Positions 17,902 to 18,140 of a stretch of DNA of 21,203 nt are shown piece after piece. This DNA is from Promethearchaeota archaeon. GTDB taxonomy: Archaea > Asgardarchaeota > Odinarchaeia > Odinarchaeales > JBHLKK01. The DNA lies in assembly GCA_048939465.1 (NCBI GenBank), contig JBHLPL010000024.1:1-21203 (forward strand), given 5' to 3'. The notes beneath the pieces are model-generated. The model was given only the letters and a program-made list of their open reading frames with translations, was not told the DNA's origin and did no database searches. Position 1 is the first letter of the stretch. Each line of letters starts with the position of its first letter. The translations under genes and the position numbers were made by a program.

Positions 17902-17948
17902 CCTTTAACCTTTTCCAAAAGCCCTCAGCCATAAGCTTTTTCAAATAA
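17902..17948. promoter_or_regulatory. Back-to-back promoters for pyrB (minus) and tRNA-His (plus)
   Basis: Minus-strand GGAAAAGG-TTAAAGG (17916-17902) is a good BRE-TATA. Plus-strand ATAAG-CTTTTTCAAATAA (17931-17948) is a weaker TATA-like element upstream of the tRNA. Confidence 0.5.
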
Positions 17949-17970
17949 TTCATCTATATTCCAACAGAGT

Positions 17971-18140
17971 GGCCGGGATCAAGATGGCCGGGATACGCGA
18001 AAAAAAGCGTCCCGAAGGGGTAGGGGTAGTCCTGGCGGCCTGTGGACCCCGACATATAAAGGGGGACAGACAGACGCCATGTAAACCACTACGTGGTGCC
18101 ATAACCGCAGGCGGGGGTTCGAATCCCCCTCCCGGCCCCA
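17971..18140 (+). tRNA. tRNA-His(GTG) with three introns (8/9: 17995-18016; 37/38: 18046-18071; 39/40: 18074-18104) and a possible fourth (5/6: 17977-17991); G-1 and CCA encoded
   Basis: After removal the 76-nt mature sequence is G-GCCGGGA-TG-GGGTAGGGGTAGTCCT-G-GCGGC-CTGTGGA-GCCGC-AGGC-GGGGG-TTCGAAT-CCCCC-TCCCGGC-C-CCA. It has a perfect 7-bp acceptor stem plus G-1:C73 (the His hallmark) and perfect anticodon and T stems. The gene starts at 17986 instead if the 5' duplication is only leader. Confidence 0.93.

Follow-up and report, generated by a model that had tools for sequence, protein, structure and literature searches.

The closest described relatives of the element reported here are the non-canonical BHB introns of Thermoproteales and other TACK archaea (PMC4090602), including those with relaxed HBh' or hBH motifs (PMC5829648). 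[quoted passage not shown]" They are short, set two bulges around a 4-bp helix, lie outside 37/38, occur in multi-intron genes and belong to lineages with an (alpha-beta)2 endonuclease that carries a specific loop. The intron that we describe resembles them in all of these respects. It differs in its site, between positions 8 and 9, and in a central helix built from acceptor nucleotides 3 to 6; an earlier note, made from the letters of this DNA alone, had remarked that 8/9 does not belong to the commonly reported sites, and it is indeed missing from the sites named in PMC4090602.

Two other archaeal systems share part of this architecture. The acceptor-stem intron of Thermoproteales at 3/4 (Sugahara 2008, as cited in PMC4090602) likewise lies close enough to the 5' end for its motif to need acceptor or leader nucleotides, but its position differs from that of ours. 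In the trans-spliced split tRNAs of Nanoarchaeum equitans and Caldivirga (PMC4090602), extra complementary segments outside the mature tRNA keep the precursor cuttable, as we suggest here; our locus, however, has one transcript, and its extra segment duplicates a tRNA strand and does not complete the BHB itself.

Asgard tRNA genes have been reported to carry many interruptions, with insertions often missed by callers (PMC11291895; bioRxiv 10.64898/2026.10.13.758758). Like ours, the published Asgard tRNA-intron studies concern several introns per gene in an Asgard host, overlooked by callers and with BHB geometry enriched at their boundaries. Those studies, however, centre on Atabeyarchaeia, Jordiarchaeia and D-arm insertions and pool acceptor and junction sites as "other," whereas the genome studied here is Odinarchaeia-like; in the main text of the two studies we found no mention of a leader copy of the acceptor strand. 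A literature search, whose scope left aside the catalogues of Marck and Grosjean 2003 and Sugahara 2008, returned nothing on introns between positions 8 and 9 and no paper describing a leader copy of the acceptor strand beside acceptor-proximal introns.

Here we analyse a stretch of 21,203 nucleotides (the window) from the genome of a Promethearchaeota archaeon. Positions 17995 to 18016, which separate U8 from G9 in the only detectable tRNA-His gene, are very probably a genuine protein-spliced intron of the BHB type, with a relaxed motif served by an alpha/beta endonuclease and RtcB, and with a leader copy of the acceptor strand that probably holds the 3' strand. What is unusual about the 8/9 intron is its site; as an element it is of an ordinary kind.

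A tRNA-His gene interrupted three times

At the level of sequence, window positions 17986 to 18140 on the forward strand are confirmed as a tRNA-His(GUG) gene with three introns (Table 1). Removal of 17995-18016, 18046-18071 and 18074-18104 leaves a 76-nt product, with G-1, C73 and CCA all encoded, that ARAGORN reports as tRNA-His(gtg). The product has the GUG anticodon, G-1 (G17986) opposite C73 (C18137), a standard cloverleaf and a D arm of GGGT-AGGGGTAG-TCCT, and the spliced mature tRNA would be expected to read ...GCCGGGAU-GGGGUAG.... ARAGORN finds no tRNA in the unspliced window, and Rfam at its gathering score recovers only a tRNA-Leu at 15-120, missing tRNA-His. Searches by blastn of the assembly that holds the window (G000, 91% complete) yielded no second tRNA-His and no paralogues of the three introns, and there is therefore no sign of an intron family or of transposition. 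Genome-wide, only 24 tRNA matches reach the Rfam cut-off, most of them longer than 90 nt, which fits the heavy interruption reported for Asgard tRNA genes.

Several further observations concern the window and this gene. The tRNA-Leu at 15-120, found by Rfam and not by ARAGORN, has the anticodon loop CTCAGAA and an insertion of ~30 nt in its variable arm. The A-type ATPase subunit A encoded in the window is 92% identical to that of a Hodarchaeota-labelled metagenome-assembled genome (MAG) and 74% identical to that of an Odinarchaeia MAG. Introns 2 (37/38) and 3 (39/40) of the tRNA-His gene are separated by an exon of 2 nt (AG). In the unspliced gene the anticodon loop CTGTGGA (18040-46) borrows its last base, A18046, from the start of intron 2, and A18072 replaces it upon splicing. 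Intron 2 must be gone before the central helix of intron 3 (GTGG 18042-45 with CCAT 18099-102) can be brought next to its 5' bulge, which would imply an order of splicing.

Table 1. Features of the tRNA-His locus, in window positions
Feature	Position	Strand	Basis or remark
Promoter-like element (AAGCTT, then A/T-rich box)	17933..17949	+	resembles AAGYTTAAAWA of other G000 tRNA genes
Upstream GGCCGGGAT copy: G-1, 5' acceptor strand and T	17971..17979	+	identical in three congeners
Spacer CAAGAT between the two copies	17980..17985	+	variable among congeners: CAAGAT, TAAAT, TAAAAT
Exon 1: G-1 (17986), GCCGGGA nt 1-7 (17987-93), U8 (17994)	17986..17994	+	perfect complement is TCCCGGC 18130-36
BHB central helix, 5' strand (tRNA nt 3-6)	17989..17992	+	pairs with 18011-14
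Intron 1, 22 nt, 8/9	17995..18016	+	absent in G003-G006; kept in G001, G002
Extra T facing 5' bulge; T66's place in 5-nt 3'-acceptor copy TCCCG	18010	+	sequence comparison
BHB central helix, 3' strand	18011..18014	+	pairs with 17989-92
Exon 2: nt 9-37 (D arm, anticodon stem 5' strand, CUGUGG)	18017..18045	+	ARAGORN, relatives
Intron 2, 26 nt, canonical 37/38, central helix CTGT/ACAG	18046..18071	+	enumeration: 4 inner pairs, 1 outer
Exon 3: nt 38-39 (AG)	18072..18073	+	completes anticodon stem GCGGC/GCCGC
Intron 3, 31 nt, 39/40	18074..18104	+	9-bp inner helix in minimum-energy fold
Exon 4: nt 40-73 and encoded CCA	18105..18140	+	T arm GGGGG-TTCGAAT-CCCCC (18113-29), TCCCGGC, C73, CCA

Splice motif and splicing machinery of the 8/9 intron

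The boundaries of intron 1 are fixed by homology. Four same-order relatives from an Odinarchaeum-like sister family (G003-G006; ~1.4 Mb each, one closed) lack the insertion in their tRNA-His genes and read GGCCGGGGTGGGGTAG uninterrupted, which places the insertion exactly between U8 and G9. Its removal restores T8-G9-G10, as the earlier note had predicted: the product GCCGGGA-T-G-GGGT is colinear with the sister family's GCCGGGG-T-G-GGGT. The two intron ends fixed in this way are each spaced exactly 2 nt 3' from a strand of the CGGG/CCCG central helix, as the BHB cutting rule derived from canonical 37/38 introns requires.

That helix consists of four G:C pairs between the predicted cut sites. 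The 5' bulge is formed by A17993 and T17994 before the cut and A17995 after it, and the 3' bulge, a clean AAG, by A18015 and A18016 before the cut and G18017 after it; a hairpin of CGC (17996-98), GAAAAAAA (17999-18006) and GCG (18007-09) follows the 5' bulge, with T18010 as an extra base. All of these elements of the motif at 17989-18018 are present just as first described. Against the strict hBHBh' definition, the 4-bp central helix is in place; two clean 3-nt bulges are not, the 5' side being an internal loop of 3x1 that pairing of T18010 would reduce to a bulge of 2 nt, and adjoining helices of at least 2 bp are lacking, the outer helix being only C17988:G18018 and the inner CGC/GCG helix being offset by T18010. 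Our enumerator of strict hBHBh' motifs missed the motif because of this offset and the 1-bp outer helix. The earlier description of a relaxed motif with a 2-nt 5' bulge is upheld, but the proposed partner of T18010 was A17995, whereas ViennaRNA favours A17993:T18010, again leaving a bulge of 2 nt.

Chance would seldom produce this arrangement. Moved to alternative sites across the leader and mature tRNA (n=93), the same intron gives 4/4 central pairs at just 4, and shuffled introns do so at the true boundary in 0.65% of cases; the overall chance rate of the BHB geometry is 0.65-4%. Cuts placed 2 nt 3' of the helix strands, moreover, yield a tRNA-His(gtg) with U8-G9 that matches the intron-less orthologues.

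The host also encodes what a relaxed motif needs, namely an endonuclease with a broad-specificity loop and a ligase. Of two EndA genes in G000, one (G000:C90, L098:1168-1782) has its closest matches among the catalytic alpha subunits found in Aeropyrum, Sulfolobus and Pyrobaculum and aligns with the A. pernix alpha subunit gaplessly through the specific loop, with a lysine aligned to K44 and the catalytic histidine kept; the other (G000:C139, L099:1474-2049) resembles the structural (beta-like) unit. K44 of A. pernix is reportedly the key residue. RtcB and RNase P RNA are encoded as well. Relaxed motifs are cleaved only by (alpha-beta)2 and epsilon2 endonucleases that have the specific loop and the key lysine, and Asgard EndA has been reported as (alpha-beta)2 with an L1 loop (PMC5829648). 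The relaxed 8/9 motif fits a broad-specificity endonuclease of this crenarchaeal and Asgard type. As a separate observation, one of the two RtcB genes (G000:C31:2961-5708) lies in a 973-aa open frame, where ~1.4 kb of possible intein separates the two parts of its Pfam match.

In the precursor, we propose, tRNA nucleotides 3 to 6 (CGGG) would pair with the CCCG close to the 3' end of the intron, placing A7-U8/A and A-A/G9 (slashes mark the cuts) in two bulges with four base pairs between them. Each bulge would then be cut behind its second base by the alpha/beta splicing endonuclease, and U8 would be ligated to G9 by RtcB; meanwhile the leader copy at 17971-79 would probably hold the 3' acceptor strand, later to leave with the leader.

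The 8/9 site in relatives and in tRNA-Tyr

Two further genomes of the window's genus (G001 and G002) allow exons and introns to be compared. Across the three genomes the exons carry 0 changes in 76 positions and the introns 7 of 80 and 10 of 80 (Fisher p=0.014 and 0.0015), and the changes to intron 1 in G001 and G002 are confined to its loop, at 17999, at 18002 and as one inserted base. The genomes used are MAGs of 78-96% completeness, and the lineages with or without the 8/9 intron are few and related.

A pattern scan over 400 genomes of the phylum was used to search for tRNA-His genes interrupted at 8/9. The tRNA-His gene of an Asgard genome from another class (G012) also has 22 extra nucleotides at this site, and its BHB is strict: a CGGG/CCCG central helix, bulges GT/T and AT/G, and a 5-bp inner helix that directly adjoins the central one. 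Excision of this intron and of one at 29/30 gives a tRNA-His. Two genomes of G012's class but of a different family, G032 and G041, lack the 8/9 insertion in tRNA-His. The intron is therefore present in the window's genus but not in its same-order relatives, and in G012 but not in the other family of that class, a distribution that would fit either two gains or two losses. The window and G012 introns agree in length and layout and have 11 of 22 bases in common, which is indecisive as to origin. A CAAG spacer common to the two loci was considered as a mark of common descent and rejected, since the window's congeners have TAAA or TAA there. Also rejected was the strongest strict BHB in G012 (1488-1507), since transcription probably starts no earlier than its 5' strand and its product would have an A7-C66 mismatch and no G-1.

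The G012 gene (L100:1400-1710) sits in a tight cluster, flanked by two other tRNA genes; its second intron, at 29/30, is also 22 nt long, and three acceptor-like heptamers, GCCGGGA, GCCGGGG and GGCCGGGGT, follow one another upstream. The tRNA-His gene of G003 (L007:1492-1625) has an insertion after the anticodon, at 37/38 or 38/39, with an imperfect BHB in which C31-C32 is unpaired, and a second insertion of 24 nt at 53/54. Between families, the set of introns within one tRNA evidently turns over fast. Wider scans returned only spurious candidates. The first tRNA-His pattern had no match in the metagenome scan; a relaxed pattern gave 120 rows, 11 with a matching 3' strand nearby and none of them a true tRNA-His, the matches L151, L162 and L180 being the antisense of another tRNA's T arm. 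A scan of 36 genomes of the phylum (completeness 99, noisy pattern) gave two matches, both spurious, and a contiguous-gene pattern match in G145 (L115) is not a tRNA.

The same site is interrupted a second time within G000 itself. Its tRNA-Tyr(GTA) gene (G000:C66:10526-10711, minus strand; L123:47-232; 186 nt) contains one insertion of 29 nt at 8/9, a second of 49 nt at 37/38 and a third of ~33 nt in its variable loop, and ARAGORN detects it only once the 8/9 insertion has been removed. The tRNA-Tyr of G003 has no 8/9 insertion and has the other two introns in common with G000, while G001 and G002 retain the 8/9 intron with changes that keep the hairpin. An AGC repeated at both ends would by itself allow any junction from 8/9 to 11/12; the BHB selects 8/9, with a strict motif of central helix CGCC/GGCG, bulges GT/A and AA/A, and inner helix GCC/GGC. 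The D loop of this tRNA (L123) reads AGTCGCA in G000 and AGTGGCA in G001-G003, so that the near-universal G18 is a C, which may be either a genuine change or an assembly error.

In each of the three 8/9 introns, the five bases preceding the last two repeat nucleotides 66 to 70 of the intron's own tRNA (TCCCG in the window, CCCCG in G012, CGGCG in tRNA-Tyr), and the strict motifs of G012 tRNA-His and G000 tRNA-Tyr have, like the window, an outer helix of 1 bp. T18010 occupies the place where T66 would pair with A7; the corresponding C sits in the inner helix of both strict introns.

A leader copy of the acceptor strand

The nonamer GGCCGGGAT occurs twice, at 17971-79 and 17986-94, and both copies are the same in all three congeners. 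Because the central helix is built from acceptor nucleotides 3 to 6, the BHB and the acceptor stem are mutually exclusive, and the BHB conformation of the tRNA-His precursor is not its predicted minimum-energy fold. It had been noted earlier that the motif consumes the 5' acceptor strand, which is correct, and that the acceptor stem cannot form until splicing, which we refine: an acceptor-like stem may form earlier, for both the minimum-energy and the BHB-constrained folds have the 3' acceptor strand paired to the upstream copy. With the real 5' strand taken by the BHB, the 3' strand is thus probably held by the leader copy.

Such copies accompany 8/9 introns. Among 26 tRNA genes of G000, the longest leader copies of a gene's own acceptor strand belong to tRNA-His (8 nt) and tRNA-Tyr (5 nt), the other 24 having at most 4 nt. 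The tRNA-His of G012 also has a leader copy, and none is found in the intron-less orthologues. At position 7 the copy follows its own tRNA, with A in the window (nucleotide 66 is T) and G in G012 (nucleotide 66 is C). The entire tRNA-Tyr leader, GTTCCGCC, is complementary to the 3' end, GGCGGGAC, and with this leader the BHB becomes the minimum-energy fold. The native leader lowers the computed cost of the BHB helix by 6-7 kcal/mol in tRNA-Tyr and by 1.5-2.9 kcal/mol in the window's tRNA-His with all trailers tried; for the latter, 1-6 of 20 shuffled leaders match its effect. Folds of G012 with arbitrary transcript ends were contradictory, and we therefore repeated the folding over a grid of ends: there the leader has an effect only with trailers of at most 6 nt and none at 12 nt or more, so that it hinges on the assumed transcript ends.

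In many tRNA genes of G000 the motif AAGYTTAAAWA ends 21-34 nt before nucleotide 1, a spacing that implies very short leaders and makes the acceptor-copy leaders exceptions. From this spacing, transcription of the tRNA-His gene probably starts just upstream of 17971, so that the leader copy would be transcribed. Of the two ways of pairing, only leader with 3' strand and exon strand with intron would be nested; the other would be a pseudoknot. We consider it a well-motivated inference that the upstream copy is a stand-in, pairing with the 3' acceptor strand for as long as the real 5' strand is engaged in the BHB.

The duplication also admits an unlikely reading in which the tRNA begins at the upstream copy (G-1 at 17971) and the two copies mark a fourth intron, a 15-nt mini-intron at 5/6 (17977-17991), with the 8/9 boundaries unchanged. 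A strict hBHBh' motif does exist at 17969-17994, with a GGCC/GGCC central helix, GGG bulges, an inner AT-CAAG-AT and two outer pairs (T17970:A17993 and G17969:T17994), and cutting it would regenerate one copy; G001 and G002 vary in the loop only, a G17969A change keeps the outer pair, and the promoter spacing puts the upstream copy where mature 5' ends usually lie. The fold, however, hangs on the palindrome GGCC, its analogue in G012 is degenerate, the upstream copies in G012 lack G-1 and U8, the tRNA-Tyr leader copy forms no such motif, and the downstream copy is already a complete exon.

It is highly improbable that a single 37-nt intron (17980-18016) lies at 8/9, in which case exon 1 would be the upstream copy and the downstream copy would be intronic, even though the mature sequence would be identical, the upstream copy is paired to the 3' acceptor strand in the minimum-energy fold and the promoter spacing is compatible. 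Past the 5' bulge such an intron has no inner helix, A17981:T18010 being followed by an A17982/G18009 mismatch; the CGC/GCG hairpin stacks on the downstream copy only; and in G012 the upstream copies GCCGGGA and GCCGGGG lack G-1 and U8 and are followed by C. We give still less credence to a boundary at 9/10, with cuts after A17995 and G18017 and A9 in place of G9: by inspection of the sequence a cloverleaf still forms, but the cuts would fall 3 nt rather than 2 nt past the central-helix strands, and G9 is present in the tRNA-His of G003, G012, G032 and G041. Least credible is that there is no intron, whether because the tRNA begins at G18009, GTCCCGA then serving as its 5' acceptor strand, or because the gene is a decaying pseudogene. 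ARAGORN does report such a tRNA-His when intron 1 alone is left in, and gives nothing else, but this defective alternative contains two C-C mismatches within its acceptor stem, has A8 and lacks G-1. A perfect strand, complete with G-1 and U8, is present 22 nt upstream of it; across three genomes the exons stay unchanged as the introns vary; and this is the sole tRNA-His gene found.

With a 22-nt intron at 8/9 as the preferred reading, several consequences follow for Asgard archaea. Both ARAGORN and Rfam at its gathering score miss an essential tRNA gene here, and such genomes may wrongly appear to be without tRNA-His. The junction of the acceptor stem and D arm joins the sites at which protein-spliced introns persist, and the three introns form a natural series at one site, strict in another class, strict in tRNA-Tyr and relaxed in the window, that can probe the tolerance of the Asgard endonuclease.

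We tentatively suggest, in a proposal that could well be right although we do not quite lean towards it, that 8/9 introns bring a dedicated leader helper, which pairs with the orphaned 3' strand, favours the nested BHB and is afterwards discarded, either by RNase P or possibly, in this genus, through another cut by the endonuclease. If so, archaeal pre-tRNAs would possess a cis-acting folding device that is unpublished, and the leader helper would limit where new tRNA introns settle. A leader copy that is a real helper would also explain how an intron survives even though the tRNA's most stable helix is in competition with its splice signal.
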